A stretch of 64,000 bases of DNA. Source: Torpedo marmorata (lineage: Eukaryota). Below, piece by piece: positions 3,379 through 56,844 of the stretch; the stretch's first letter is position 1, and each line of letters begins with the position of its first letter. The stretch covers positions 190,402,001-190,466,000 of the forward strand of contig OZ360225.1 in the NCBI GenBank assembly GCA_977017645.1, in the 5' to 3' direction. Both the position numbers and the translations under genes were made by a program. The notes under the pieces were generated by a model, which was not told the DNA's origin, ran no database searches, and saw only the letters and a list, made by a program, of their open reading frames with translations.

Positions 3379-6058
3379 TTATGACCTACCCTTCTGCCAG
3401 TGGCTCGAGCGGTCGACTTGTTCTATCATAAGCCTCCTGTTCAGCAGCTGGGACTTGACTTCTTGTGGGTCTCTTAGTTGAGTTTCCAGAAGCCTCCTTG
3501 CTACCGGCAGAGTCGTTCTGGTCTGCCTTGACATTAACCGTTGCGCCGGTGAGCCCAGTGTGGTGTCGTGAGGGATGTTCCTCAGGTTTAGCAGGTTAAG
3601 TAACACGTTTGTCTTTTCTTTGTGAGACATCTCCATGAGCTGCTTTGCACTTCTTACAGCTCTCTCAGCCAGCCCGTTTGACTGTGGGTACTCTGGGCTA
3701 CTGGTGATGTGGGTGAAATCCCACACCGTTGCAAAGTCTCTGAATCTCTCGCTGGTGAACTGTCTGCCATTGTCTGATAGCAGAGTGTGAGGTGCCCCAT
3801 GCACCGCAAAGTGACGTTTCAGCTTTGTAATGACTGTGGAGGAGGTCTATCTCAAGCCATCCCGAGTACGAATCAACTAGTACCAAACATTGATCTCCTC
3901 GCCATCCTAAAATGTCTGCGGCCACAGTTGACCAGGGTAGGTCTGGTACGGGGTGGAGCTGTAGTGGCTCTTTCTGTTGGTGTGGCTTAGTGCTGTTGCA
4001 CACCGAGTAAGCCTGCACCCCTTGATGTCTTCTGTCATGCCTGGCCAGAAAACGACGTCCCTCGCCCTTCGTTTGGTCGCCTCCGCGCCTGGGTGTCCTC
4101 TGAGTAGGACATATGCGTTCTGTAGTGAGCTTGGGATTACCGCTCTTTGGCCCTTCATTACGACCCCTTCGCCAATGAGTAGCTTGTCATGGAAGGGAAA
4201 GTAGGGTTGCACGGCTGGTGGCAGGCTGCGCTGTTTGTTCAGCCAGCCGGCCTTGATAAAGGTGCCCAGGGTACTTAGAGTGCCGTCTTCCGCTGTGTGT
4301 TTTCTTAGTTCGTCCAGCCGGGCCGAGCATATATAGGCAACTGTCATCACATCTAAACTGTCTTCTTCTTCGACCTGCTGTACCGTGCATTTTCTGGGGG
4401 CGCGGGATAGCGCATCGGCTAAGTGTATTTCCTTACCGCACTTGTGCACCAGAGTGATGTTGTACTTCTGGAGTCTGAGCATCATTCGCTGTAGTCTCGC
4501 CGGTGCCGCGTGCATTGGTTTGTTCAGTATTGTCACCAAGGGTAGGTGGTCGGTTTCTATGGTAATCAGCGTACCGTAAACGTAATCGTTGAATTTGGAG
4601 CAGCCAAAAACAACTGCCAATAGTTCTTTTTCAATTTGTGCATACCTGGTTTCCACGTCAGTGAGTGACCTTGAGGCGTATGCCATTGGTTTCCCATCTT
4701 GCAGGCATGCTGCACCTAGGCCATACTGCGGGGCATTGCAGGTCAACATCACTGGTCTTCGTACGACGTAGTAGGACAGGACTGGAGGGCACGACATGTG
4801 TCTTTTTAAAGCGTCAAAAGCATTCTGCTGTTGTACGTGCCAAGTCCATTCTACGTCTTTGTGCGTCAGCTGCCTCAGTGGGGCTGTCAGTTCGCTTGAG
4901 TTGGGGATAAACTTGCCCAGGTAGTTTACTATGCCCAGAAATATTTGCAGGGCTGCCACGTCCATTGGCACCGGCATTTCGGTGATGGCCTTTATTTTGG
5001 AAGGGTCCGCCTTCAGGCCTTTGCTCGTGAACACATGGCCTACGTAGCTGACTTGGCCCAGTTGGAACCTGCACTTCCGGGGGTTAAGCCTCAGGTTCAC
5101 TTTTTGTGCTCGGTCGAGAACCTTCTTTAAGTATTCGTCATGTTCGTCTTTAGTTTTTCTGCCCACCAGTATTTCATCGACTATGATGGCGCAGGGGAAC
5201 CCGGCGAAGATTTGCTCCATGGACCTTTGGAATACTTCGCTGGCCGAATTGATCCCAAATGGCATCCGCAGGAACCTGTATCGACCAAACCCAGTGCTGA
5301 ACGTGGTCAGTAGTGATGATTTGTAATCGAGTGAGACTTGGCAGAATGAGTTTTTCGCGTCTGGGACCGAAAATTCCATCGCACTGGCCATTTGTGCAGC
5401 CACTTCTTCTACGGTGCGCATGGGGTGATGTGGTCTCTTCAGGGCGGTGTTGAGGTCTTGCGGGTTTATGCAGATTTGGATTTCTTGTCCGTCTTTCTTC
5501 TTGGCGGCCACCATGGAGGACACCCATTCGGTCGGTTCCGAGACTGGAGTGATTACGACCAAGCCGTGCATTCTGTCCAGCTTGGCCTTGACCTTGTCCT
5601 TCATTGCCACCGGAATGCGGTGTGCCATACGCACCACGGGTCGCACCTCCGGGTCGAGCCGCATGGAGTATGTCACCGGCAGCCTCCCCAGTTCGTCTGT
5701 GAAAAGCTCGCTATATTCGGAAAAAAATTTCTGGGACAAGTCGGCTTATCTGGTGTACCTCCCTGCTGAAAGAGACGAGTCCCATGTCCATGCACGCGCT
5801 CAGGCCAAGCAGCGGCACAACGTCCTCGCAGACTACGAAGAATGCTAGTATGTGTAGCCATCCTTGTACATGGCACCGTAGCCGCACTGTGCCGCTGGTC
5901 TGGATTCTACTGCCTCCGTACGCCACCAGGCTCGTTGGTCTGGTACATGGTTTAACTTGTTCCGCTTTTTTCAGCCGGTTGAATGTCTTCAGTGACATGA
6001 CGTTGCACTTCGCCCCTGTGTCTACCTTCACCTCCGCCACCTTGCCGTTAATTTTCAT
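3379..6058 (-). pseudogene. Gypsy pol: protease, RT, RNase H, integrase (frameshifted)
   Basis: VKVDTGAKCNV protease; RMPFGINSASEVFQ and IVDEIL (degenerate YxDD); ETRYAQIEKELLA RNase H; LSDNGRQF and YPQSNGLAER integrase core. Confidence 0.93.
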
Positions 6059-10716: not shown

Positions 10717-12415
10717 GGGTACACCAAGTCCTGGGGAAGTTAACTTTTTCAGTACCTGGCCCCAGTGTATACTCCAAAAGAATTCATCCTTCCTGCTGAC
10801 CGTCCGCAGTCCAAATGGTCAGTCATGGTCCATAACACTTCCCTCCCTCAAAGGAAATTTTGGTCTGCATGAACAAAATTTAGGAAAGTAAGTGAGGTGT
10901 CAGAATATAAACAAAATCTACAATGTTTATCCACAAATACAAAATATGAACTATTTTCATTAATAAAGTTTAACATCTAGAAAGACAATCAGCAATTACA
11001 TTATCTCTCCCTTTTATATGAGTGATTACCAAATTATATTCTTGCAAAATTAGACTCCAATTCAACAACCGTCGATTCTTATTTTTCATTTTACAAAGAA
11101 AAACCAATGGATTATGGTCAGTATACACTATGAGTGGTTTTTGAGCTGTACAGATATACACATCAAAATGTTGTAGAGCCAATACAAGAGCCAACAACTC
11201 TTTCTCTATAGTTGAATAATTCCTTTGCTGATCATTGAACTTCTTTGAGAAGTAGGATACCGGATGTTCAATGTCCTCTTCGTTCTTCTTCTGTAACAGC
11301 ACCGCACCCACAGCTTCATCGCTCGCATCCACGGCTAAAGAAAACGACTGTTCTAAATTAGGTGACTTAAGCACAGGTTGGTGGCATAACATGGCTTTCA
11401 ATTTGACAAATGCTTCCTGACAACCTGTAGACCATACAAATTTCTCTTTCTTTCTAAGCAAATTTGTGAGAGGGAGCGCAAGATCAGCAAAGTTTTTACA
11501 GAACTTGCGGTAGTAGCCAATCATTCCCAGGAACCTCCTCAGAGTTTTCTTACCAGTTGGAACAGGGAACTCGGAAATAGCGACAACCTTTGCCTCTACT
11601 GGCGCCAACTTCCCCTGTCCTACAACATAACTCCAAGAATTAACAGTCCCATGACCCTCTCTGAAACTGGTTTTATCTGTCTCCTCCTTACCCCTGTCAA
11701 TAACCAGTACCTCTGGTAAATTTTCAGTCCCTTTGTGAGGCACCTGTTCAAAATATGGCTTAATCATATTCACATGACAGACCTGTGTGTCTCGTCTGCG
11801 ATTAGGTGTTTCTATGACATAGGTGACCTCATTAATTTTTGACTTAACTCTATAGGGTCCTGAAAATCTAGCCCTAAGAGGATTTGAATGGATGGGAAAC
11901 AGAACTAATACGTTCTCACCAGGTTTAAAAGTTCTCATCTTCGCCTTTCGATCATACCAAACCTTCATTTTCTGTTGAGTGGCCTTTAAATTCTCCTTTG
12001 CCATCTCACAAGCCCTATGTAACCGATCCTTAAATTTGGAAACATAATCTAACAGATTTAAATGCACATCACGATTAATCCACTGTTCTTTTAATAATCT
12101 TAAAGGACCTCTCACCTCATGTCCGAAAACTAACTCAAATGGACTAAAACCAAGCGAATCTTGGACAGACTCCCTCGCTGCAAATAACAACAAATGAACC
12201 CCCTCATCCACTTTCTCATCAACACCCCATCTTTTTCATAATACCCTACTGGCACCTTTTTAATCTCTTCTTCAGAGAGAACCTTATCCCTCACCTCAGC
12301 AAGATCCGGATCGTCTTTTTGCCTTGCTATTAACTCCTGTCGGGATAGTGACAAATCTGTGCCTTTAGGTGTCTTATCAGTGGATGGGCGTAACATAGGA
12401 GATTGCTCAACCTTT
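9976..12415 (-). mobile_element. 3' part of a Gmr1-like Gypsy element with internal deletions
   Basis: 3' LTR 9976-10837, PPT 10838-10850, integrase C-terminal part upstream of RT end and RNase H. Confidence 0.9.
10970..12415 (-). pseudogene. Gmr1-like pol remnant (INT C-term, RT C-term, RNase H)
   Basis: LLFAARESVQDSLGFSPFELVFG and FSGPY (INT), RRFLGMIGYYRKF, LAVDASD, YSTIEKELLAL, KGRDNVIADCLSR; INT core and RT core missing. Confidence 0.88.
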
Positions 12416-16539: not shown

Positions 16540-18690
16540 TCAATGCATCTTGATGTATGTGCACAAGTGTACGTTCCTGCCTGTATGGTCATCTTCATAT
16601 CTGGTCTGCCTTTTCGCTGCATCAAGGCTCATATATGTTTGGAACATAGAACATTATAGAATTTGTTCGCCTTAACTTTCTTGGATATTTTTGGCCCAAG
16701 GGCTTTAGTGGAGCTTGTTTCAAGGAAGCAATGGCCTCCCCAATGTTCAGTTCCCCTCAACATTTTGTCACAATTGACATTGTTATCTTGTGACCGGGAT
16801 TTAATCAGTCAAGTGCCAGGGTATGGAATGAGAGAGTATTATGATGTTGCCAACAGCATGACCACACAAACACTTTAGTTCTCTAATAATCGGATTTGAA
16901 GATTGTTCACAGAAATCCACAAGATTTTTCTTTGCACTTGGTGACAAGCAAGAACCTCAGCAAATTTCATTTGTCATCAGCTCAGTAATTTTCCAGTAGA
17001 AAGTAAACAAAATACTTTGGACAGGTAAAGTGATTTGCCTGGAGCTTGGATATTCTGGACCAATGTTTGACAATCAACTTCAGACATTGTGCATCCAACT
17101 TGAGCAAGTACAGTAATAACATCTTATTGTCATATCTCATTATGATTGCTCAGCTGAAACCTAATTTCCAGTGTCTTACAGTGTATCATCATTTTCAGAG
17201 CGCCCAGTCGCCTTGCCGTAACCTTTCATATGTCCCTTCCCATTGCCAATAGGCTCAATGCACACTGATTGGCGATGCTGCTGGAGCTGCTGTAACGGCA
17301 GCACTGCCGGTGCTGCAGACCCAGGAGAGCGGAGAGCAGAGACACAGCCCTGCTCTGAAGATTTCAACTGCCCTGTCCTAATGCCAGTGACTCTGTACAG
17401 GCTTTCATGGCCTGTTAGAGAAGCCAACAGCGTTTTTAAACTAAAATCCTGCAACTGCGGGGTCTGTGCCCAAGATGGCTTGGCAGCGGCCATGAGGGTT
17501 AGCAGACTCCAGGGAGCAGCGGACTGGAGCAGGGTACCAAAAACAGGAACAACATTCCCCATTGAGAAGGAGAAGCGTGTGAGACGACCCTACAGGACGG
17601 TGACCACGGTGGCGGACTAGTAAGGGGGCTCAGTGGCTGAGGGACCCACACAGGCTTTGGGCGACTTGCGATCGGCGGACCCACAAGGGCTCTCGGCTGC
17701 TGGAGACTGGCTCATGGGTACAAAGTATCAGAGCCGGGTGTAAGAGCCATAGGCTTGGTTACCAACCTTCATCGCGGTGTTCCAATGGTCCCAACGGGTG
17801 TCGGAGGAGTCACGGAGAATAGTAGGCCGTGCTAGGCCTATTGAGTACTCTGCGCATGCACGGGAGTGCAGACGGGCGCATGCGCGTTAATCAGAGAAGA
17901 AGCATATAAGAATATGGCGACCTGGAGGAGGGTGAGTGAGATCGCCATAGATTTCATTGACCGTTTAAAGGAGCGTTAGAAAGAATCGTTGTAAAAGAAC
18001 ATTTTAAAGGAAGTTTAAAGACGTTTTAAAGAATCGTTATTAAACATCGTTATCAAGAATTGTTTATATTTCGTTAAAGAAGATATTTAATTCATTGAAG
18101 ATTGCTACAAGTCATCGTATGTTAATAAAGTTTTTGAACCTATTGGACTTTTTAGTAAATTAAATGAAACGCTCATGAACAAGTGTCTCACCTAGCCTCC
18201 AAGTGACTATTTGTTGTATTGAAGTCACTATATTTTAGTCAATTAAAGATTATTGTTTGGAACAGAAAATTGAAGGAAAGAAGATAGAATAACCTCTCTA
18301 TGCTTTGGACTGATATTTAAAATAAAATGGCGGCCATCTTGGAAATGCCTCGAGTTAGGGGCAGTTTGTAATCCACATCCATCTGCCATGAGTAACAGCC
18401 AGAGAGGGATATAGAGCTTTAAATCTTATAGTAAAGTGTCCTATAAATACGTTGGAGAAACCATTTCTTGAAAATCAGCGATATTATTGATGGATGCTGT
18501 GGTGGAAACTCGTTTGTGAATAGCAGCACATTAAAGTCATCTGAAGTGGTAGGCATAAGTCTGTGGACTCCTTCTGTGTATCTTTGGCAAGTTTGAACAC
18601 AGATTGGATTTACTGCCGCTAGTCCATTGGGGACTGTTGATTTGGCTAGTGTTGTGTATGCTCGAAGTACAGTGGAACAAGACGAGTAAA

Positions 18691-18835
18691 ATGGCCACAG
18701 CAGCCGCTGATGTTGCTGTTGAGGAACAAAGTATTGAAGACATGAAGGTTGTGGATCTCAAAGAAGAATTGAGGCGACGGAAACTAGATACAAGTGGAAA
18801 TAAAAAGGTTCTCATTCCAAGACTGAAGCTGGCAA
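18691..18835 (+). pseudogene. SAP-domain coding segment (SAFB/SLTM-like) at the start of BEL gag
   Basis: MATAAADVAVEEQSIEDMKVVDLKEELRRRKLDTSGNKKVLIPRLKLA fits the SAP pattern LxVxxLKxELxxRxLxxSGxKxxLxxRL. Confidence 0.75.
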
Positions 18836-18922
18836 ACGTGAAGAACAGGCGGCTTCGGTTGATGGGAATGAAGAAATTGCAAACTCATTGCAAAAGACAA
18901 CGACGAACATGAACACAGCAAT

Positions 18923-21400
18923 GTGGAAATGGCTGAAAATGTGTCACCAAATGATGAAGAAAACGAAGAGGATGAAGCTACAAAGGATGTACAATTCGAA
19001 TTGCAGAAAGAGGTAAGTAAGAAGACAACATCAGACCTGCAGGATGAAATACAAGCATGTGACAGTGTCTTAAATGTTGAAAGCAGGAGAAGCAAACGAA
19101 GTTCTGGTTCGAGCTCCAGAGTTTCTCGTACTTCAAGTTCTGCATCGTCACGTACAAAGGTTGAAGTTGACTTGGCCACTCTTCTTGCACAACAAAAAAT
19201 GCTAAAGGATAAACATATTTTAGAAGGACAGGAGGAGCAGCTAAGGCAAAAGGAGGAGCAGCTAAAGCAGCAGCTAAGGCAAGAGGAGGAGCAGCTAAGG
19301 CAGAACCAGGAGCAGCTAAGGCAGAGAAAGTAGCAGCAGGATCTGGAAGCAAACATTACTATTGCCAGGGCAAAAAAAAAGGTACTAGAAGGCTCAATGG
19401 TATCTGGTGCTCAGAGTAAATTATCGAAAGTGTGCGATGATAAGAAGTTATATTTTATAAAGGAGCCACAGGAAAAGAAACCAACCAAAAAGGTAGATAT
19501 TTTAGTACCAAGGGTACAAGACATGCAAATACAAGGACAAATCCTTCAAGAGCATGGTGTTATCGAGTCACATGTACCAGTGGTAACATCCAAAGACAAA
19601 GCTGCGGCTTGGGTTCGGTGAAACGATGCAGCTCCCTTGGCATTCGAGTCAAGCATCAGAAATACAGGAGAAACTACACCAGTGAGGTTTCCAGATACAT
19701 TACCTGCAACAAGAGGCGGTGAACAGAGCAATGTATTGTCATCCACAGGAAGACAAAATGAAATTGCTGCATCATTGATTCAGTTACAGTCTATCTCTTC
19801 TTTGCCCAAGAAAGAGATTCAAACTTTTGATGGTGATCCACTTCAGTACCAAGCGTTCATGAGATCATTTAGATGCAGTATTGAAAATAAATGCCAAGAC
19901 CCTGTTGAAAGTCTTTATTATTTGGAAATATTCACAAAGGGACAGCCAAAAGAACTTTAAAGAGTTGTCAACATATGTCCTCAGAAAGAGGATTAGACAG
20001 AGCTAAGTCTTTACTGGAACAACATTTTGGCAACAAGCATCGAATTGCTTTAGCTTATATGGATAAAGCTCTTAAATGGACATCAATAAAACCGAATGAT
20101 GTAAAGGCTCTACAAGCATACACTCTCTTTTTAAGAGCATGTTGTAATGCCATGGAAGATATCGATAATATTCGTGAGCTTGACGTGCCTGGTAATATGC
20201 GAATCATCTTAGATAAATTACCTTACAGGTTGTGGGATAGTTGGAGAAATTTGGCTTGTGATTTACAAGAAAATTACGGTCAAAGAGCTACCTTAAAGGA
20301 TATGGTAAATTTTCTTGAACAACAGGTGTACATTGAAACAGATCCAATATATGGAAATACCAGAGACAACTCAATGGGGAACAAAGATGTAAGGAGGTCT
20401 TACTCACAGCCTAGTCTGAAATTGAAAAGGAGTACTTTTGCTACTAATGTTTCAGTTATAAATAAAGAAAAAGATAAAGTAAATAAGGAAAAGGAAAGTT
20501 TGCCTAATGAGAAGAGTTGTTTGTTCTGTAAAGGTGGACATGCTTTGGAAATGTGTTTACGGTTGGAAAAGAAGGAACATAATGAGAAGATCGCTTCCTT
20601 AAAGGAAAATGGAGCATGTTTCAACTGTCTGTGTAAAGGGCACATCAGTAAAAACTGCGAGAAGCAAATTAACTGTAACATATGCAATTTGAAGCATCCT
20701 AGAATGCTGCATATCCATCAAAGAAAGAAGGAATTAGAAAAGGAGCAAACAGAAACAAAGGAAACAACAGAAAACAATGTTATAACCTCAGTTCAGACAA
20801 GTGGTCTTACCGGGGCCGGTGTGGATAACTGCAAACTTTCAATAGTGCCTGTACAAGTCAAGACCAAGAAAGGGGATGCAACAGTACATATATATGCATT
20901 TCTTGACCCAGGCAGCACTGCATCTTTTTGCACGGTGGGACTAATGAACAAACTTAATATTCAGGGAAGAAGGTCAAGAATTATGTTGAAAACCATGGGA
21001 CAAGAAAAGGTAGTTGAAACCAGCATTGTTTCAGGCTTAGAGTTTGCTGGATTGGATTACAAAAAAATTTGTATTCTTCCAAGTTTATATACTCAGAAGA
21101 CTATGCCTGTGCACGAAGGAAACATTCCGCATGAAAATGATTTCTATCATTTGTCTTATCTGTGGAAGGTTTATTTACTTGAAGTTAACTATGAGATAGA
21201 AATGCTGATTGGTTCAGATGTGCCAAAGGTTTTGGAACCACTAGAAGTAATACGGAGTAGAGGGAATGGACCTTATGCTGTTAGAACCAAGCTTGGTTGG
21301 ACAATCAATGGACCATTGGAAAGAAATAATGATATTGCACAGGAACAGTTAGCGATAAATGTTAACAGAATTTCGGTTGTGAAAGTTGATGAGTTAAGGG
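18923..21400 (+). pseudogene. BEL/Pao gag-protease (stops and frameshifts)
   Basis: SLPKKEIQTFDGDPLQY, CLFCKGGH, CFNCLCKGH, CNICNLKHPRMLH knuckles; YAFLDPGSTASF protease; PYAVRTKLGWTINGPL. Confidence 0.9.
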
Positions 21401-21831
21401 AAGAGCAAAAGACTGTGAATAAGAAAGTCATTTTTGAAGAAAAGAAAACAGATCAATGTGAAAATAAATCAAAGGTATTTAAAACAACATTGAAGCAATT
21501 ATTTTCATCAGAAATTGATAAAAATGAAGTATTAGAAGATATTGCAAATAATACTAATGATTATTCCTGTGTAATTGAATCAGCGGCAGGATTAAAACAA
21601 GTGACTGAGAACAAATTTGAAAGTAGATTTTGTAGTTCAGAGGTTACAACAGACAAAGTCAATGAAGAAATGTTGCAACGTGATGTAAAACTGGATAACA
21701 CAGAAAATTGTGCTGATGGAATGAAGAAGAATGTGAATGATAATTTAATGCAATTGAATTCAGAGAACAAAATGTTGAAAGGGGAATTGGAAATATTGGA
21801 TAATCATGAAAACAGTAAACAGAAAGATTTA

Positions 21832-22180
21832 ATTGTAAATAAAATTCGCAAAGTCAGAAAGCGGAAGAAAAGAATGACTGCTGAAGAAATAAATACAGTT
21901 ATTGAGGAAAGAGTTTCAGCATTATCGAAATATAAAAGGTTGGAGGAAGAGATTCATATTTTGAAAGAGATTGTTATTGGTTAATAACACAAAACAGTTG
22001 ATTATAGAAAACAATCAAGAATGTAAATTGAAGGTTCAGCTATTAACAATGCAGAAAGAAAGTGATATTGCATTGCAGCAATGTAACAAGCAAGATGAAG
22101 AAATTCAAAAATTTCAAGTTTACCACAGCAGGGTTGACAATGTATCACATGATATTTTCACTTCAGATCAAGTTATTAAT
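21832..22180 (+). pseudogene. Captured MIPOL1-like coiled-coil fragment within the BEL element
   Basis: KRMTAEEINTVIEERVSALSKYKRLEEEIHILKE...NNTKQLIIENNQECKLKVQLLTMQ...ALQQCNKQDEEIQKFQVYHS resembles vertebrate MIPOL1 as recalled; one frameshift, no introns. Confidence 0.7.
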
Positions 22181-23936
22181 TTCTCGGAAGGAACTGAGAC
22201 TGAATTGAAAGTTGCAAAATTGGATTTGGAATTGCAGGAAAAGGCAATAGAAACCAGAGTGGTTAAAGAGACTCGTTTATTAAAATCAAGAGGATCAGAT
22301 AAATATTCAAATTCTAGTTCTAAGAGATTAAATTCTTCATATGAGAAGTGGTATGCTGAAGAAAGGAATAAAGTGAAACGACATGCTGAAGAAGTACCTC
22401 GTGTTAAATTCAAAAGAAAAACTAGCTATTTTGTCTGAGGAAGATTTAAGGTTTACTGGTCGACGTTTTAACTCAAAAATTCTGGAGATAAAAGAACTTT
22501 GATAAATACAAACTGACTTTATTTTGTTGTGTTGTATACTACATAGGTTACAGACTTTTATTGATCCAGAGTTATGGTAAACTCTGGTCTTATGAAGAAA
22601 GAAGATTTGTATATGGTTTGAATGTTATATGGTTATTGTTATTTGTAATTGATTGTGTAATTATTATTTAAGAAGTTGCGTCTCGTTATAATAATTAGAG
22701 GCCGGTGTAAGAGCCATAGGCTTGGTTACTTACATTCATCGTGGCTTTCCAATGGTCCCAGTGGGTTTCGGAGGACTCACGGAGATTAGTAGGCCGTGCT
22801 AGGCCTATTGAGTACTCTGCACATGCGCGGGAGTGCCGACGGGCGCATGCGCTGTGGGGAAGTGGCTGGAGCATGCGCGGTGGAGTATGTTCGGTGGAGT
22901 ATGCGCGGTGGAGCATGCGCATTAATCAGAGAAGAAGGATCTAAGAATATGACGACCTAGAGGAGGGTGAGTGAGATCGCCATAGCTTTCATTGACCGTT
23001 TAAAGGAGCGTTAGAAAGAATCGTTGTAAAGGAACGTTTTAAAGGAAGTTTAAAGACGTTGTAAAGAATCGTTATTAAACATTGTTATCAAGAATTGTTT
23101 ATATTTCGTTAAAGAAGATCTTTAAGTCATTGAAGATTGCTGCAAGTTATCGTGTGTTAATAAAGTTTTTGAACCTATTGGACTTGTTAGTAAATTAATT
23201 GAAACGCGTCATGAACAAGTGTCTCACCTAGCCTCCAAGTGACTATTTGTTGGATTGAAGTCACTATACCGGGATTCAAGAGGGTGCTGAGTGCAAAAAG
23301 GGCTCCCAAAGGGCCTCGGGTGCTGAGGCTTCCTAAAGGTATCGGAGGTTTGGATCTGGAGCTCGGGTTGCCGATGGATCGAACAGCAGTCGGTGTGGCT
23401 GCAGAGGCTGTAGGAGCGCTGGAGATGAATCCATGGGCATTCAGTGTCTCTGAAGGGACACTCTTCTGCTTCTCTTTGTCCTTTTGTTAGGGGAGCCGGG
23501 CAATGCTCATGGTGACTTGTTGTTTTCCTATGGCAGACAAAAGTTAAAGTATATCATGTTCGTTACATTTTTTATCTATTATTACGTGACATTAAAAGGA
23601 ATCTTTAAACTTGAACTTTGATCAAAGTACACTCCCAATCACCTCATTTTGATCGTACAAGTCCACCAGTTCAAAATCAATTAGCCTGCGCTCTACACAA
23701 ATCCATTTTCATTCATTCAGTACTTTTTCCAAACTAAAGTTATGTGCCTTCTTGTCTTGATCCACAGTAACATCAATGCCTCGCTCTCATTTTCTTCACA
23801 TGATAGAACTAAATAATAATCCCCACCAATTTCAGAGTTTCCTCTGTATATCTTACAAATTAAAACTCTACAGGGAGCACAACATTTCCATAGAAAACCC
23901 CAGCACAAAGTTTCCATGGACAACCCTAGTGATGTG

Positions 23937-24360
23937 TGTTACAACTCAAACCAGCAACAACAGAAAACGCATTTCAAAAGGGTTGAATTTTAACTCTATA
24001 TTTATTAATGACTATTAACAATATAATGTCTCAACACAATTAACCCCACTATAAGTATCTATGGCAAATATACGGATATCATATATTTATAAACAGTGTG
24101 TACGTTAAAAAAAAAATACCCAGACCATTACAGTCTGTGCCCAATATTCAAAAAGGAAAAATCCCCAAAACCCCAGGTCAGTCAGTCAAGTCAGTCAGTC
24201 CAAAAACACAGTCCACAAAATTCAATCTCAAAGTTCAATGTCCAATTTCAGTTCTTTAACTGATAACAAAGGATGTCGTATTGAATGTTGGAGAGAGAAA
24301 TGACTGATGTTACGTTGCAGTAAGGTGACAAATCCTTTTTCAGGCTTCCTCAGATGACTT
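23937..24360 (-). repeat. Partial LTR of the Gmr1-like family (second subfamily), truncated at the Penelope element
   Basis: tgttacaactcaaaccagcaac... closely matches 56016-56433. Confidence 0.88.
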
Positions 24361-24463
24361 AAAACATGAAATTCTGTAGACACCGTGGTTGAAGTAAAAA
24401 ACACAAATGCTGGAGAAACTCAGCAGGTCAAACAGTGTCTTTTATGTAGCAAAGGTAGAAATA

Positions 24464-24504
24464 CATAACTGACGTTTCGGGCTTGAGCCCTTCATCAAAG
24501 TATG
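24464..24504 (-). ncRNA. Minimal hammerhead ribozyme motif
   Basis: Minus strand catactttgatgaagggctcaagcccgaaacgtcagttatg: (U)UGAUGA, stem II gggc/gccc, GAAA, GUC. Confidence 0.65.
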
Positions 24505-24691
24505 AGAAAATGCCGGCAGGTGTCCGAACAAAAGAGTGAGGGGGGGAGGGGGGGGGGTGGCAAAGGCGGAAGATGATAGGTGGAGAAAAGAGGGAGGGGA
24601 CAGCAGCAAAGAGGGGGAGGAGGGATGGCTGGGTGGGTGGAAAAAAACAGGAAGGACAGGTGAGGGGGGAGGGGAAGGAAACGACAAGCAG

Positions 24692-26334
24692 TCTCCAACA
24701 CCATCTCCAACCTCATCACCTTCTGTCACCTCCCCCACACGGCCACCAACCTCATTCTCTCCCACGCCTGCACTGCCCGTTTCTACCTTCTACCCAAGAT
24801 ACACAAACCCAACCAACCGGGCAGACCCATTGTTTCTGCCTGCTCCTGCCCCACCGAACCAGTTTCATCTTACCTTGACTCTATCTTTTCTCCCCTGGTC
24901 CAATCCCGCCCCACCCACATCTGTGACACCTCACATGCCCTCCATCTCCTTAATGACTACAGATTCCCTGAACCGGACCACATCATCTTCACAATGGATG
25001 TCCAATCCCTTTACACCTCTATCCCCCACACAGAAGGTCTGAAAGCACTTCGCTTCATCCTGGACCAAAGACTCGACCAGTCACCCTCTACAACAACCCT
25101 CCTCCGCCTGGCAGAACTTGTTCTCACTCTCAATAACTTCTCCTTTAATTCATCCCACTTCCTACAAATCAAAGGAGTAGCCATAGGTACCCGCATGGGT
25201 CCCAGCTACGCCTGCCTGTTTGTGGGCTTTGTGGAGCAATCCATGCTGCAAGCCTACACAGGCAAGACCCCTCATCTCTTCCTCCGGTATATCGACGACT
25301 ACATTGGGGCTGCCTCATGCACCCACGATGAGCTTGTCAACTTCATCCACTTCACATCCAACTTCCACCCTGACCTCAAACTCACCTGGTCCATCTCCGA
25401 TAGCACTCTCCCCTTCCTGGATCTCTCTGTCTCCATCTCGGGAGACAAGCTTTCCACCGACATATACTACAAACCCTCCAACTCCCACAACTATACTTCC
25501 TCACCCCCTGTCCCCTGCAAGGATTCCATCCCCTTCTCTCAATTTCTCCGTCTCTGCCGCATCTGTTCCCAAGGTGAGGTCTTCCAGTCCAATTCTTCTG
25601 AAATGTCTGCTTTCTTCCACAAACTTGGCTTCCCCTCCACCACCATCAACTCAGCCGTCACCCGCATCTCCTCCATTTCCTGCTCATCTGCCCTGGCCCC
25701 CTCTGCCCCCAGACGCCACAAACATAGAATCCCCCTCATCCTCACCTACCACCCCACCAGCATCCACATCCAACATATTATCCGGGGGAATTTCCGGCAC
25801 TTACTACAGGATCCCACCACCAGACACATTTTTCCTTCTCCTCCCCTCTCGGCCTTCCGCAGGCACCGCTCCCTCCGCGAATCCCTCATGCACTCATCCC
25901 TCCCCACCCATTGCACCCCAAGCCCCTTCCCCTTTGCCCGCAGGAGGTGCAACACTTGCGCCCACACCTCCCCCCTCACCACGGTCCGGGGCCCCAAACA
26001 GGCCTTTCAAGTGAAGCAACACTTCACTTGTACATCCAGAGAACTTATTTACTGCATCCGGTGCTCCCTTTGTGGCATTCTCTACATCGGAGAGACCAGT
26101 CGTAGATTGGGAGATCGCTTCGCTGAGCACCTCCTCTCCGTCCGCAACAACAGCGACCTCCCAGTAGCCAACCATTTCAATTCCGAGTCACCCTCCCACA
26201 CTCACATGTCTGTCCATGGCCTTATGTACTATCCCACCCAGACCACCCACAAATTGGAGGAACACCATCTTATTTTCCGTCTGGGCACTCTCCAGCCCGA
26301 TGGCATTATCATTGACTTTTCTGCTTTCCACTAA
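24692..26334 (+). pseudogene. Penelope RT plus GIY-YIG endonuclease (5'-truncated)
   Basis: MDVQSLYTSIP, GVAIGTRMGP, LRYIDDY, LPFLDL, CTSRELIYCIRCSLCGILYIGETSRRLGDRFAEH. Confidence 0.92.
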
Positions 26335-26518
26335 ACCTGCTTGCCTTTTCCTTCCCCTCCCCCCTTCCCTGTCCTTCCAGTTTTTCCACCCACCCAGCCA
26401 TCCCTTCTCCTCCTCTTTGCTGCTGACCCCTCCCTCCTTTCTCCACCTATCATCTCCTGCCTTTGCCACCCCCCTTCCCCCCCTCACTCTTTTATTCAGA
26501 TGCCTGCCGGCATTTTCT

Positions 26519-26559
26519 CATACTTAGATGAAGGGCTCAAGGCCGAAACGTCGGTTATG
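26519..26559 (+). ncRNA. Minimal hammerhead ribozyme motif (mutated)
   Basis: catacttagatgaagggctcaaggccgaaacgtcggttatg. Confidence 0.55.
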
Positions 26560-26939
26560 TATTTCTACCTTTGCTACATAAAGGACACTGTTTGACCTGC
26601 TGAGCATTTGTGTTTTAACTTCAACCACGGTGTCTAAATATTTTCATGATTTACTTCTTTCACCAACAGGCTTCAAAAAGTTTCTTCCCTGCAGTTACCA
26701 GGCTCCTGAATAAACCCCAATAGGGCTCTCATGCAGCCCTTGCTTGCTGCTAATTGATCTCCCTTTTCATTGTAATCCCATGTCTGTAAATTGAGTTCTT
26801 TACATGAACATACGAAATGTTAAAGATAATCTTTTAGCCTGCTCGCAGCAGAACCCTTCTCATTGCATGAGGTATTTTATGACAACTAATCTTAAACTTA
26901 AAACCTGAGTCAAGCAGAGAAAGATTGCAAGTTGGACCA

Positions 26940-38198: not shown

Positions 38199-41100
38199 TG
38201 TAGCGGCTATATTTACCTGATATACACATAATCATAAGAATACACTCACTCGTTCAACAGTACAAATGGAGGCGACCACCTTTATTCCTCTCAGCCATAA
38301 CAATGAAATCTTCATTCCACCAAACACCACCCAGCCAAAACCCCCGACCTTCTCATTGGCTCTCTGCCACACGGGTGATCTCGACTCTCTCAATCTCCTC
38401 CTCCTGCGTCCGAGATCCATCACAGTGTATGAAGCCAACTGATATGACACGTGCATGCGCGCTACTACTACCACTCGTCGCCCCTGATACATCATCCGCG
38501 GTGACCAGCACCGCTCCCAACGCAGGTAAGTATACGACCACGACAGCCATGCAAGGAAGCAACTGATTAGAACTGTCCCACTACGTAATGGTCTGGAGCG
38601 CTGACAGTCCAGCCCAACCGCATACGATACTGCATGGTGAGCGATGTATGCTCCAACTGGCAGGGTGCAATTGTTCCTTCGACGTTAACAGCAACGCAGA
38701 ATACGGACCATCGATAAACACCGCCTTCAATCTGTCAATGGAGACCGTGTCAGTTTTCCCATTTCTGCGAATCACAAAACTCTTCGGGTGGCATTGTGTA
38801 ACCTCAAAAGGTCCGTCGTAAATGGGCTGAAGTGGTTTGCGAACAACGTCATGTCAAAGGAACACATGCGTACAGCGTTGTAAATCATCTGGTACATACA
38901 CTGCAGGTGATGCATGTCGCGTTGGTGTTGGTCTGAGCAACCGCATGCTTTCCTGAAGAGGGTTGACATAACTCGCTGGATCATAGAGGGCTGTACCCAG
39001 ACCTGGATTCACAAACTCGCCGGGCAGTGTCAGCATGGTGCCATTTACCATTTCTGCTGCTGAATATCCAAGATCCGCTTTTACAGCAGTACGTACGCCA
39101 AGGAGAACCATGGGCAAATGTTCACTCCACAGAGATGCATTGCCACCTGCTGTCAATGCTGCTTTCAATTGGCGGTGGAAATGCTCAACGAAGCTGTTGG
39201 CCTGCGGATGGTAAGCCGTGGTCCGAATGCGGGTGGTGCCCAAAAGATCAGTGAGAGCTCGGAACAACGCCGACTCGAACTGAGACCCTCAGTCCATTGA
39301 CGGAACCCAGCGATTAACAAAAGCCCGAGCGATGGTCTCCGCAGAGATGCAGTGACAGGAATGGCCTCCTGCCACCTGCTAGCCCGGTCCTCACATGTGA
39401 ACAGATAAGTGTATCCTCTGGATGGCAGAAGCGAACCCACCAAATCCATGTGCACGTGATGGAAACGGGAATCTGGAACAGCGAAATCTCCCAGCATGGA
39501 TTTTGTGTGACTGGAGACTTTAGAGCTTTGACACGGCAAGCAGGTTCTTGCCCATAATCCAACATCCCACTTAACGTGAGGCCAGGTAAAGCGTCCGTAA
39601 TCAGTTTGATCGATGCTCTTCTACCAGGATGAGACAGTTATGAAGAGCCTCGAAAATCCCTTGCCGCATTGCCGCTGGCACAAAAGGTCTAGGTCTCCCT
39701 GTGGAAAAGTCACAAACCAGTGATTCACCCGATTTATCCAGGCACACATCTTGTAGACGGAGATCTGTGTTGATCCGGCGATACTGGACGAGATTGGGAT
39801 CAGTGTGTTGTGCACGAGCCATGGCAGTGAAATCGATGGTAGGCGTCATATGTAAGGCCTCAATGTCGCGCATGGACAGGGCATCGGCCACGGCATTCGC
39901 CTTCCCTCAGATGTGCCGTATGTCCGAGGAAAATTGCAAGATGAAGTCCAAGTAGTAGTGTGTGCTGCCTCAATGACTACCGCCCAGTAGCACTAACTTC
40001 TACTGTGATGAAATGCTTTGAGAGGCTGGTCATGGCCAGAATTAACACATACCTAAGCAAAGATCTGTACCCACTGCAATTCGCCTATCGTCACAATCGC
40101 TCCACAGCAGATGCAATATCGCTGGCTCTCCACTCAGCTCTGGATCACCTCGAAAACAGCAATTCATACATACGGCTGCTCTTCATCGACTACAGCTCGG
40201 CCTTCAATACCATTATTCCCTCAGTGCTGGTCAAGAAGCTACAAACTCTAGGCCTCTGTACCCACCTCTGCAACTGGATCCTTGACTTTCTCATCAGAAG
40301 ACCACAGTCAGTACGAATTGGAAACAATGTCTCCTCCTCACTGATTATCAACACAGGCGCACCCCAAGGATGCGTGCTTAGTCCACTGCTCTACTCGTTA
40401 TACACCCATGACTGTGGGGCCAGGCACAATTCCAATGCCATCTACAAGTTTGCCGATGACACCACAGTTGTCGACAGAATCACAAACAGCAATGAGGAAG
40501 CGTACAGGAGGGAGATAGATCAGCTCGTTAAATGGTGTAATGACAACAACCTTGAGCTCAACGTCAGCAAAACCAAGGAGATGATTGTGGACATCAGGAG
40601 GAAGTCAGGGGAACACGACCCAGTCCTCATCGAGGGCTCAGTAGTGGAGAGGGTCAAGAACTTCAAATTCCTGGGTGTCACCATCTCCGAGGATCTGTCC
40701 TGGAGCATCCACGTTGATGCAATCACAAAGAAAGCTCGTCAGCGGCTATACTTTGTGAGGTGTCTGCGGAGATTCAGTATGTCACCGAAGACTCTCGTAA
40801 ACTTCTACAGGTGTACCGTGGAGAGCATTCTGGCTGGTTGCATGACTGCCTGGTATGGAGGCGCCAACTCCCAGGACAAGAGTAAACTCCAGAGGGTTGT
40901 TAACTCAGCCTGTGACATCACAGGCACCAAACTTCACTCCATCGAGGACATCTACATGAGGCGGTGTCTTAGAAAAGCAGCCTCTATCCTCAAAGACCCC
41001 CACCACCCAGGCCATGCCCTCTTCACTCTGCTTCCATCGGGAAAAAGGTACAGGAGCCTAAAGACGAGCACTCAACGGCACAAGGACAGCTTCTTCCCCG

Positions 41101-42787
41101 CTGCCATCAGATTCCTGAATAATCAATGAACCAAAGACACTGCCTTACTTTTCGTGCACTATTGTTTATAATTTTTTATAGTAATGTCGTAAGATGGTTA
41201 ATATGAATGTTAATTGCACTATGATGCTGCCGCAAAACACCGAATTTCGTGACTTGTTCATGACAATAAATTCTGATTCTGATTCTGATTCTGATTCTGA
41301 AGTGCCGAATTTCCCGTGGCGAGTAGAAATGCACGCTTGTATGTGCGGTATGCGTAAGAGACTGGTGGTCAGTATAAATGGGTAAAGGGCTACCTTCCAA
41401 TAAAAATCTGAAATGCTTCACTACGAGATATATGGCTAGGAGTTCTCGCCCGAATGTGCTATATTTTGCCTGAGCCGGTGACAGCTTGGCTGAAAAGGAC
41501 GACAGAGGTTCCAACTTCGCAACAACTCTTTGTTTTAACACCGCTCCTACGGCACTGACAGAGGCATCTGTGGTAAGAGAGAGCAAGGCGTTTGGCTTTT
41601 GGTGCACAAGCATCGTGGCATTCGCGAGCGCAGTTTTCACATCATTGAAGGCATGAACGGCATCATCTCCCAAACTCAATGGTCTTTTCGAAGTGGACAT
41701 ATTGGATCCTTTAAGTTGTTCGGTAAGGGGTAAGAGAGTCGCTGCTGCATTCGGCAGGAAATGGCGGTAGAAATTCATCAAATCTAAAAAACACTGTAAC
41801 TGGCCAAACGTAACTGATGTAGGAAAATCTCAAATTTTTTGCACTTTTGTTTCATCAGGCAATATACCGTGCCTGGTAACTCTATGTCCTAAAAATATAA
41901 GTTCAGCAGCACCGAAAATGCTTTTATTCGAATTGATCACAATGCCAAATTTATCAAGTTTCTGGAACAGTGATATAAGATGGTGCTTGTGTTCCTCTTC
42001 ATCCACGCTCGTTACAAGAATATCATCGATATAGATATATACAAAATCGAGGCCGCAGAGTACGTGGTCCGTAAACTGCTGGAATGTCTGAGCTGCATTC
42101 CGCAGACCGAATGGCATTCGAAGAAACTCAAACGTGCCGAAAGGAGTAATTACTGCTCTCTTGGCAACATCGGAAGGCTCCACCAGAATCTGATAGTAAG
42201 CACGCACCAGGTCTATTTTTGCAAATACACGTTTGCCGTGCAGGTTTGCTGAGAGATCCTGCAAATTGGGAATGTTGTATCGGTCAGGAATGGTGGAATT
42301 GCTGAGCGCACGATAATCACCACAAGGCCGCCAATCCCCAGGAGACTTCTTTGGAACCATATGCAATGGCGATGCCCAGCAGCTGTCAGATCTGCGAACT
42401 ATCCCCAGCTCCTGTGTGTAGCTGAATTCCGCTTTTGCGATTTTAAGATGATCCGGGGGTAATCTACGAGCCCGCGCTGCAACCAGAGGATCCCGGGTCT
42501 CTTTGTGGTGGGTTACTGCATGTTTAATGTCCCCATGGCGATACGATGGGGTTACTAGGTGAGGGAAATGCTTGAACAATGCTGGGAAAGGGCAGGAGCT
42601 AGGTTGGAGGCTCATCAGGCAGGTGACAACATTGGAGGGATGACAAATGCAGCCAACTTGCATACAAGTGCTGCGGTCCACAACACAGTGATGAACGAGT
42701 GAGTGTATTATTTTGATTATGTGTATGTCGGGTAAATTATAGCTGCTACAAGTGGTGACCCCAACGCAGGTAAGTATGCGACCGCGA
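38199..42787 (-). mobile_element. Decayed Gypsy element: 3' LTR, INT, RH, RT; gag and protease lost; 5' LTR end plus PBS inverted
   Basis: LTR 38199 to about 38519; TTAYHPQAN, DTVSIDRLK, YSTFGRELLA, WRPCGDYRAL, YIDDILV; 42694-42787 is the LTR end plus TGGTGACCCCAACG (tRNA-Trp-type PBS) on the + strand. Confidence 0.88.
39954..41299 (+). mobile_element. Young 5'-truncated Rex1 LINE with open RT frame (39960-41129)
   Basis: [35 protein letters not shown]; (gattct)n tail; aagt at both junctions; removal restores REIRH-LDFILQF. Confidence 0.93.
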
Positions 42788-45228: not shown

Positions 45229-48200
45229 TGTGGTAAACCACTGTAAATACCTGTATATATGTTTATGGTCGTATGGACACGCCCCTTGCTGGCTGTATCT
45301 GTGGCTCCTCCCACAGACCCCTGAATAAAGGCTATTGTGCCACAGCTCCCTCCCCAGTCCAGTACAGATGACCACCAGGAATGTGCATCCATTCCAATGT
45401 GAATAAAAGCCTATCAGTTCTTGCTTAACTTCTAGCCTTTCAGAGTTATTGATGGTGCATCAATTTTATTCACATTGTTTTCGATAATGTATCAATACCT
45501 GAAACCTGAAAAGTTGGAGCTAGTCCCTCAATCACCCGAGGCATCCAACGGTTTTGAACACTGACTGCGTTGTTTCGAGGCATTCTTGAGGGCCTCTGCT
45601 ACTGTCGTTCAATCTGAGGACGACAAACTACAATTGCTACATTCCTGGTTCGGGCCCCAGGTGTACTCGATGATCAGGAACACTGAATCTTACCGGGAGG
45701 CCATGGACATGCTAAAAGGCCAGTACCTGAAGAAGGTAAATGAAGTCTAAACGACGCCATCTTCCCAACTCAGCAGCGCCGCGTGCGAACCATGGGGGCC
45801 GCCATCTTGGACGGAGCCATCTTGGACACCCAAACACCGCATCACCCCTACAGAACCCGACAGCAACTCAGTACTGGCCTCCATCACACTAGATCAAGGG
45901 AGTCCCCATCAACTGGCCAGATCGATGATGGACATTGAGGTGGATGCCACAAGACGAGCTGCCTCTTCGATAGTGGGAGCACGGAGAGTTTTATACACCC
46001 CGACATGGTGCAGCGTTACCGCCTCGCCGTAATGCCAGTAAGCCATAAAGTGTCCATGGCTTCCAAGTCCCACACAGCAGAGATACACGGTTACTGTGTA
46101 GTGACCCTGGCTGTGCTGGGCACAGAGTATGAATTTTTAAATTACTTGTCATGATACAGCTTTACGCGGAAGTGCTACTGGGGCTAGACTTCCAATGTCA
46201 CCTTAAAAGCGTGACGTTGGAGTACGATGGGCCCCATCCCCCCTTACCGTCTGTAATCCGCAGTTTGTAAACCGCCCATAGCAACTCACCCACAGAAGCT
46301 CCCCGGTTTCCCCTCCCATCGTGTCCAAACAGCGACCCACCGATTGCCCACCGTGCGCGCCTGCGGCCTTTCTACCCTCCGGATCACCCCCCCCCCACCG
46401 CTGTTCGCTAACCTTACCCCCAACTGCAAACCCATGGCCACCAAAAGTAGGCATTACAGTGCCGGGGACAGGGCCTTTATCAGGTTGGAAGTGCAGCGGC
46501 TGTTGAAGGAGGGGATTATTGAAGCCAGCATCAGCCCCTGGAGAGCCCAAGTGGTGGTGATAAAGAATGGGGAGAAGAAAAGGATGGTCATCGATTATAG
46601 TCAGACTATCAACCGTTATACGCAGCTGGACGCGTACCCCCTCCCCCGCATAGCCGACATGGTAAACCAATACCGGGTGTTCTCCACCATCGACTTAAAG
46701 TCGGCATACCACCAACTCCCCATCCGACCGGAGGACCGCCAATACACTGCCTTCGAGGCAGATGGCCGCCTATATCATTTCCTGAGGGTTCCCTTTGGTG
46801 TCACCAACGGGGTCTCGGTCTTCCAGCGGGAGATGGACCATATGGTTGACCAGCATGGGCTACAGGTCACATTCCCGTATGTGGATAATATCACCATTTG
46901 CGGCCATGACCGACAGGATCATGAAGCCAACCTCCAGAAATTCCTCCAGACCGCCAAGCTCCTCAACCTTACTTATAATAAGGATAAATGCATCTTTGGC
47001 ACAACACGCCTGGCTATCCTTGGCTGCGTCGTACAGGATGGAGTAATTGGCCCAGATCCAGACCGCATGTGCCCCCTGTTGGAACTCCCCCTTCCCCACA
47101 GCCTCAAAGCCCTGAAAACGTGCCTGGGCTTCTTTTCCTATTATGCCCAGTGGGTCCCCAATTATGCGGACAAGGCCCGCCCCCTCGTCAAATCCACCTC
47201 TTTTCCCCTGACGCCAAGGCTGCGATGCACGCTGTGGACGAATCCACCTCGTTCCAGGTGGAGAGCGATGCGTCCGCCTTCGCCCTGGCCACCACCCTCA
47301 ACCAAGCGGGCAGACCCGTAGCTTTCTTTTCCCGCACCCTCCAGGGCCCAGAAATCCGACACTCCTCTGTCGAGAAAGAGGCCCAAGCCATTGTCAAGGC
47401 GGTGCGGCACTGGAGGCACTACCTCGCCGGAAAACGATTCACCTTGTTAACTGACCAACGTTCGGTTGCGTTTATGTTCAATAACCAACAGCGAGGTAAA
47501 ATTAAGAATGACAAGATTCTGAGGTGGAGAATCGAACTTTCCACTTACAATTACGATATCTTGTAACGGCCCGGTAAATTCAATGAGCCCCCCGATGCCC
47601 TTTCCCGCGGAACATGTGCCAGCGCACAAATAGACCGCCTACAAGCCCTACACAGCGACCTCTGCCACCCCGGGGTCACCAGATTCTTCCATTTCATAAA
47701 AGCCCGCAACCTACCTTACTCCATCGAGGAGGTCAGGACCATGACCAGGAACTGGCAGATCTGTGCGGAGTGCAAACCGCACTTCTACCAACCAGACAGA
47801 GCACACCTGATAAAACCCACCCGCCACTTCGAACGCCTGAGCGTCGACTTCAAGGGACCACTTCCTTCCTCTGACCGCAACGTGTACTTCCTCAACATTA
47901 TTGATTTCCCCTGACTAGATCTACTAGACAAGGATGCCCTTTGTCACCAGCATTGTTTACTTTAGCGATAGAACCTTTGGCAGAATTAATTAGAAAAGAT
48001 GTTAAAATTGTAGGTATTAAAGTTGGAACGGAAGAACATAAAATTTGTTTATTTGCAGATGATGTATTGATATATATGACAAAACCTATTACATCTTTAG
48101 TACAATTGCCTGCTTTATTGAGAGAATATGGGGAAATATCTGGATATAAGATTAATTCTGATAAAAGTGAAATTATGGCATTAACGCAAGGGGATTATAG

Positions 48201-56694: not shown

Positions 56695-56844
56695 NNNNNN
56701 NNNNNNNNNNNNNNNNNNNNNNNNNNNNNNNNNNNNNNNNNNNNNNNNNNNNNNNNNNNNNNNNNNNNNNNNNNNNNNNNNNNNNNNNNNNNNNNNNNNN
56801 NNNNNNNNNNNNNNNNNNNNNNNNNNNNNNNNNNNNNNNNNNNN
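56695..56844. other. Assembly gap (150 N)
   Basis: Run of N. Confidence 1.

Follow-up and report, generated by a model that had tools for sequence, protein, structure and literature searches.

The stretch of Torpedo marmorata DNA analysed here (64,000 nucleotides, positions 190,402,001 to 190,466,000 of contig OZ360225.1; hereafter 'the window') contains a single long terminal repeat (LTR) element at 17739-23268, flanked by a perfect CCGGG target-site duplication (TSD). The element belongs to a large non-autonomous BEL/Pao family, of which it is a dead member, and its pol has given way to pieces of three genes of the host (BRCA1, MIPOL1 and Elongin A). Its parts, in window coordinates, are the following.

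17734..17738, no strand: 5' target-site duplication, CCGGG
17739..18232, forward strand: 5' LTR (TG...TA)
18588..21408, forward strand: BEL/Pao gag (SAP domain, zinc knuckles) and protease, 82-88% to intact relatives
21404..21832, forward strand: BRCA1 fragment, in which a piece of a small exon is joined by splicing (junction 21517/21518) to the beginning of the giant exon
21825..22128, forward strand: MIPOL1 late exons G (part), H and I, spliced (junctions 21930/21931 and 22033/22034)
22128..22129, forward strand: non-collinear MIPOL1 junction, exon I donor to proximal exon C acceptor (back-splice type)
22129..22261, forward strand: early exons of MIPOL1 (C and D), from which 81 bases have been deleted in frame
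22261..22480, forward strand: Elongin A fragment, end of exon 4, then end of exon 5 and start of exon 6, with a 111-base deletion between
22483..22705, forward strand: last BEL integrase codons with the native stop at 22500-22502, followed by the 3' untranslated region and the purine tract
22706..23268, forward strand: 3' LTR
23269..23273, no strand: 3' target-site duplication, CCGGG

The features first noticed by a sequence-only reading of this locus, namely a gag-protease (gag-pro) frame running through the motif PYAVRTKLGW into the insert, paired LTRs within a perfect TSD, and the absence of pol, were all recovered. No Pfam match to a reverse transcriptase (RT), an RNase H or an integrase was found in the six window frames scanned, and by this domain test the copy is not autonomous. 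Paired LTRs, a 5-bp TSD, and the homology of its gag-pro, 3' end and LTRs to an intact element of the same genome identify it as a non-autonomous BEL/Pao derivative. The gag-protease itself is broken, with frame changes near 18640, 18840-18860 and 19956 and stops at 19331 and 19619. The two LTRs, whose ends were set by motif as in the other copies, differ by 32 substitutions over 494 aligned bases.

Intact BEL/Pao relatives are present in the same genome (6.2 Gb), with frames of 2,043-2,134 amino acids and LTRs that are 97-100% alike; one of them, L125, has an RT, a Pao-type RNase H (Peptidase_A17) and an integrase after the protease. The gag-pro of the window copy matches seven of the eight fetched relatives at 82-88% and the eighth at 69%; the match extends to 21408 and is found again from 22483. 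By this comparison, about 3.3 kb of pol has been swapped for an insert of 1.07 kb. The autonomous copies L123-L128 and L130 are young, one of them with identical LTRs, and in the one copy scanned Gag begins with a SAP domain.

All three host fragments are in sense orientation and in their own frame, and they are joined in one frame behind gag-protease. Bases identical to the host exons number 350 of 420 for BRCA1, 390 of 450 for MIPOL1 and 192 of 225 for Elongin A. Older copies of the family carry more of the donors, with four exons of BRCA1 and five of Elongin A, all spliced and 91-98% identical to the host; they also have the Pfam domain Elongin_A and a BRCA1 match at E 4e-70. The corresponding host genes were located on contigs C61 and C41, and the best matches for both parts were in the electric ray Narcine. 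At columns where host and Narcine differ, the older copies (group A, see below) side with the host 19 times versus 9 for BRCA1 and 11 versus 1 for Elongin A, which suggests that capture probably took place after the two lineages split. For the 111-base deletion in Elongin A, an exact skipping of exon 5 was considered and rejected, as that exon has 115 bases. One Narcine BRCA1 isoform (P0015) begins with about 185 residues devoid of a RING domain, which by eye resemble a retrotransposon Gag and are perhaps an annotation artefact.

The likeness to MIPOL1 proposed in the sequence-only reading proved significant (62% identity, E 3e-29 to shark MIPOL1, the query being a natural sister copy with an open frame and not the window itself), and an Atlas search with the sister-copy frame ranked the MIPOL1 family first. 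A PDB search gave only weak vimentin matches. A mere coiled-coil look-alike is ruled out by the 95-96% DNA identity of group A copies to the host exons. However, MIPOL1 accounts only for 21825-22261, about 40% of the insert, the rest being BRCA1 (21404-21832) and Elongin A (22261-22480). Likewise, the collinearity with MIPOL1 that had been proposed holds up to 22128 and breaks down at 22129-22261, where MIPOL1 sequence from earlier exons follows.

This permutation is a property of the family. When the genome was searched with shark MIPOL1, many matches placed residues ~218-347 ahead of residues ~88-181. Four matches reached residue 437 at 44-46% and were considered as possible linear-order copies; the one examined, L032, turned out to be permuted. 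The host gene, on contig C40, has exons B to J once each and in linear order over the 400 kb fetched. In the element copies, the donor of exon I is joined to the proximal of two tandem exon C acceptors; exons C to I would make a circle of 780 bases without an in-frame stop. The junction was ungapped for 10 bases on each side in 88 of 92 loci, of which 40 had been chosen by a junction pattern and 52 otherwise. Among the latter the proportion was 49 of 52, the three exceptions, the window included, having a gap near the junction. No exon B or exon J sequence was present in the 92 element loci, and a genome search for exon J and the MIPOL1 C-terminus returned the host gene only. Four family copies lie inside introns of host MIPOL1 (C40:64340000-64500000), above the expectation from the genome average.

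With a host gene that is linear and single, a late donor joined exactly to an earlier acceptor, and only exons that reside in the circle, the permuted exons are likely the mark of a back-spliced circular RNA (circRNA), which would be the simplest source. The earlier proposal that spliced host RNA was captured by template switching is upheld as regards the spliced exon junctions and the short stretches shared at switch points, but an ordinary messenger RNA (mRNA) is not the source, the exon order being permuted at exact splice sites. A linear spliced RNA could have the same order, through trans-splicing or through an ancestral tandem duplication of exons C to I in the host gene, and it would leave an identical, exact splice-site junction; the circle is read here from DNA alone. 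Nevertheless, we hold a linear source to be improbable: across the 400 kb of host MIPOL1 every exon is single and the order is linear, and the captured sequence never extends beyond one turn and never includes exons B or J, as a linear transcript would allow. Still harder to credit is that RT jumped backward on ordinary MIPOL1 mRNA, or that the element underwent internal duplication and deletion, and that the junction met the exon borders by chance. The two ends of the junction do share three bases (AGC), and the element switched at short shared stretches elsewhere; however, only 1 of 4,224 in-frame backward joins with at least three shared bases falls on exon borders at both ends (3 of 13,855 with at least two). 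Among the sequencing runs listed as containing the family, none was on record as RNA. Three runs, from three studies, had it in contigs that spanned all 30 bins; across the exon I stretch of the host they covered repeats and the exon only, and an I-to-C loose end in X2 is explained by element DNA. None of these observations has a bearing on circle or expression.

The order of capture can be read in part from a relic, L208/L209, the only match outside the host gene to the part of exon E that is missing from ordinary copies. In L209, BRCA1 is followed by circle positions 454-780 and then 1-400, and these directly by BEL integrase; there is no Elongin A. Its MIPOL1 content is 727 of the 780 bases of the circle, that is, less than one turn. 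Four of the five capture joints share 2 to 9 bases, as read against modern relatives and with no formal null: about 9 from RT to BRCA1, 2 (or 4/5) from BRCA1 to MIPOL1, 5 (or 7/8) from MIPOL1 to integrase, and 6 from Elongin A to integrase. The junction sequences showed neither a poly(A) tail nor a TSD of its own around the insert; together with the presence of the junction in many copies, this rules out a single later retrocopy. The locus thus has the characters of an LTR-mediated retrocopy: an open reading frame (ORF) replaced, between both LTRs, by intronless partial host RNA, with short shared stretches at the joints.

The fifth joint, between MIPOL1 and Elongin A, is of another kind. It contains a 19-base piece that starts with the exact LTR terminus (15 of 16 bases equal to the group A LTR start), and only one base is shared. 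The sequence-only reading, which invoked a spliced host mRNA captured by template switching, is too simple: two further genes were taken up, and simple switching at microhomology leaves the precise LTR end unexplained. A second Elongin A piece, the start of exon 4, is found upstream of BRCA1 in two copies (L210:6236-7033 and L211:5935-6622), so that Elongin A occurs twice per element; in L210 it is preceded by the end of exon 3. Elongin A may instead have arrived by nested integration: a separate BEL element bearing Elongin A would have inserted within the MIPOL1 portion of a copy with two genes, and of its LTR only the first 16 bases would have survived a subsequent deletion. The exact terminus and the single base shared on the MIPOL1 side would fit this, and with the second piece in L210 and L211 an RNA of an Elongin A-bearing element seems to have existed. 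However, no Elongin A-only element was found, and the middle of Elongin A exon 4 was found in the host gene only; moreover, a precise LTR end would result as well if plus-strand strong-stop DNA ran off at its 5' end. We regard nested integration as a tentative alternative, with odds a little short of even, and it alters this one step only, not the whole picture.

The chimera is not limited to the window. A 20-base junction pattern was found at 5,840 sites of the genome, and its reversed control at none. In sets of copies that had been identified independently of it, the pattern recovers only 20 of 30, 11 of 20 and 1 of 4; there are thus perhaps some 10,000 copies by our estimate, making up under 1% of the genome. 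In nine of the ten copies for which both ends were read, the TSDs agree at 4 or 5 of 5 bases, and all are different. This bears out the earlier suggestion of a transducing, non-autonomous element that was repeatedly mobilised. With end branches of about 0.03 and LTR pairs that differ by 3-10% in six copies, most of the spreading would lie in the past.

The structure of 53 copies was compared (40 taken in order along contig C1, 12 chosen copies and the window), and they fall into five groups with a shrinking insert: A0, A1, I, B1 and B2. The insert shrank stepwise from 1,850 to about 1,070-1,110 bases, a loss of more than 40%, and the Elongin_A domain is lost in groups I and B, to which all 40 position-sampled copies belong. 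The 81-base deletion seen in the window is common to 34 of 37 group B copies. Together with the two-gene relic L209, the five groups point to stepwise assembly and shrinkage. At L211:4155-5844, a group B2 copy is nested, in opposite orientation, within an older group A copy.

The frame of the window copy is further broken by a 2-base deletion near 21971, absent from the 40 other group B and I copies read there, none of them picked by likeness at the site. A frameshifted sub-lineage had seemed suggested by 22 of 30 loci (29 other top matches and the window), and was ruled out: the deletions are of at least two forms and spread over the tree (50 rows, copies with a long unbroken match), which indicates a recurrent deletion enriched by the ranking. 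In many copies (L001-L030, L167-L206), the same dinucleotide sites have lost two bases in independent events, which suggests a mutational bias in this genome.

In a gag-pro tree of 42 rows (copies with an unbroken 800-base match), the groups form a ladder, A, I, B1, B2, at the tip of which seven of the eight autonomous copies are nested. The integrase end of group B2 is a newer one. In our reading, the chimera and a co-packaged helper have repeatedly exchanged gag-pro and 3' ends. The many insertions of an element devoid of pol, combined with this exchange, make mobilisation in trans by a helper likely. The LTR ends are TG...CA in group A (L131-L140, compared with the window) and TG...TA in group B and in the autonomous copies.

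Selection on the insert was then assessed. Eleven lineage-level deletions are in frame (3, 3, 78, the pol-BRCA1 deletion, 3, 24, 120, 3, 111, 81 and 195 bases), in contrast to 12 of 52 private indels. No fixed stop was found in the insert (a fixed stop being the commonest codon of a column), whereas the private stop rate, applied to the 145 fixed changes, predicts 6.8 (P about 0.001). Another 13 small frame-breaking indels occur in two to four copies each, and we take them to be recurrent. The fixed-versus-private ratio of nonsynonymous to synonymous changes (N/S) was 0.5 for gag and 0.24 for protease (P = 1e-5), and 0.81 (P = 0.68) for BRCA1 and 0.94 (P = 0.84) for MIPOL1; the residues of the last two therefore evolve neutrally, the Elongin A part being borderline. 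Selection thus appears to have kept the open frame and not the protein, likely for RNA stability or for packaging coupled to translation. RNAs with long 3' tails are subject to nonsense-mediated decay, which we extend to this case. The pattern fits a need for a stop near the 3' end better than a need for particular residues.

The host-derived tail could also be a functional protein, released by the protease or attached to Gag, with the coiled coil serving co-assembly or a basic patch of Elongin A serving nuclear import. In the early groups it might include what we assume to be an Elongin BC-binding box, recruiting a ubiquitin ligase. A frame open over 1-1.9 kb, pieces all in sense and in their own frame, and in Elongin A a ratio of nonsynonymous to synonymous substitution rates (dN/dS) of 0.39 and a fixed-versus-private N/S of 0.28 (P = 0.036, on 19 single-base fixed changes and uncorrected for six tests) would be expected of such a protein. 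The BRCA1 and MIPOL1 residues, however, change at the neutral rate, and more than 40% of the insert was deleted stepwise, including the Elongin_A domain in groups I and B. A functional tail is in our view unlikely, although the Elongin A values leave room for a role of that part.

Our overall reading, to which we give a probability of about 0.8, is that pol of this family was replaced by spliced BRCA1, MIPOL1 and Elongin A sequence, that the MIPOL1 part likely comes from a circular RNA, and that capture likely took place by template switching in a helper particle. We also think it probable, with somewhat less assurance, that a BEL/Pao RT copied most of one turn of a germline circRNA and fused it in frame with the BRCA1 and Elongin A pieces, and that the resulting family became as numerous as its helpers and was kept as one Gag-protease-host frame across subfamilies. 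Several points weigh against these conclusions. To the junction that a linear RNA would also leave, the single base shared at the LTR-end joint and the Elongin A N/S ratio must be added the small samples for groups A0, A1 and I (4, 5 and 7 copies). The position of the stop is not strict: of 12 B1 copies, about half, the window included, have lost 2 bases some 75 bases ahead of the native stop, in group A the frame mostly ends 46-58 bases beyond that stop, and in group B2 it mostly ends about 183 bases short of the new end. Finally, the constraint on gag-pro may come from the helper by recombination and is no proof that the chimera used its own Gag.

On the reading we prefer, an RT switching templates inside the particle of an intact relative would have made the chimera. 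BRCA1 mRNA and about 93% of one turn of the 780-nucleotide MIPOL1 circle would have replaced pol first, giving the L209 type, and Elongin A would have been added later, through a junction carrying the first 16 LTR bases. The chimera would then have been copied with RT and integrase supplied in trans, swapping gag-pro with the helper lineage. Its insert would act as a stop-free spacer that holds the stop codon near its native place, shielding the RNA from decay or coupling translation to packaging, while its amino acids would be largely free to drift.

Elsewhere in the window, 24360-26653 is occupied by an element whose inverted terminal arms measure about 300 bases; by eye, its frame of 556 amino acids (24664-26331) resembles a Penelope-type RT with a GIY-YIG nuclease. 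Other long frames, at 3910-5745 and 10973-12235 (reverse strand) and at 39945-41126 and 47905-49743 (forward strand), look by eye like fragments of other retrotransposon pol genes or of the RT of long interspersed nuclear elements. There are no transfer RNA genes in the window, and one run of N is found at 56695-56844.

The family matters in several respects. Its readable switch points, together with the relic, support template switching in an LTR particle as a mechanism of circRNA retroposition. If our reading is true, it offers a readable case of that mechanism, preserves fossil traces of back-splicing in a cartilaginous fish, and serves as a natural experiment on what obliges the stop of an LTR element to sit near the 3' end; the open frame, set against drifting residues, is a large natural data set on RNA-level constraints of LTR elements. 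With its thousands of fragments of BRCA1, MIPOL1 and Elongin A, the family could mislead gene annotation, and it may, hypothetically, give rise to small RNAs directed at these three genes. In the literature searched (mostly open-access; supplements of the cited papers may contain related cases), no description was found of this family, nor of circRNA in a defined LTR element at this scale, and the portion of a shark and ray genome-size preprint that was available (10.1101/2025.06.08.657570) contains nothing on this family.

Three known systems invite comparison. In transducing retroviruses, as here, spliced host coding sequence in frame with gag replaces pol, and there is dependence on a helper. 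Unlike these, the present family is an endogenous retrotransposon, has no env, and carries captured residues that are mostly unconstrained, with no sign of a selected host-protein activity.

The second system is LTR-mediated retroposition. In the available part of Tan et al. 2016 (PMC5131818), two genes are described in the Pao element BATUMI and four at a mouse locus, and three in maize Bs1 are cited. The present family resembles the cases described there in that partial spliced RNAs have taken the place of the internal ORFs within a single pair of LTRs, with short shared stretches at the switches, several parental genes and further non-autonomous rounds. It differs from them, as far as that part of the paper goes, by its non-collinear donor, a family of thousands with intermediates, a selected continuous frame and a junction at the LTR terminus.

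The third is that of circRNA-derived pseudogenes, described chiefly for mouse circRFWD2 with 33 high-confidence copies and an enrichment of flanking LTR sequence, the mechanism being left open (Dong et al. 2016, PMC4897178). A non-collinear exon junction, circle-resident exons only, the absence of a poly(A) tail and an association with LTRs are common to both. Here, unlike there, the circle fragment lies in a defined BEL/Pao element, in frame with gag-pro, and the two switch points can be read. RNA data had revealed the parent circles there, whereas the one proposed here is deduced from DNA; the host here is a cartilaginous fish, and the copies number at least 5,840. The family reaches about 100 times the published copy number of circRNA pseudogenes. 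LTR-mediated retroposition and circRNA pseudogenes were both already known; what is new here is that the two are tied together at the nucleotide level.

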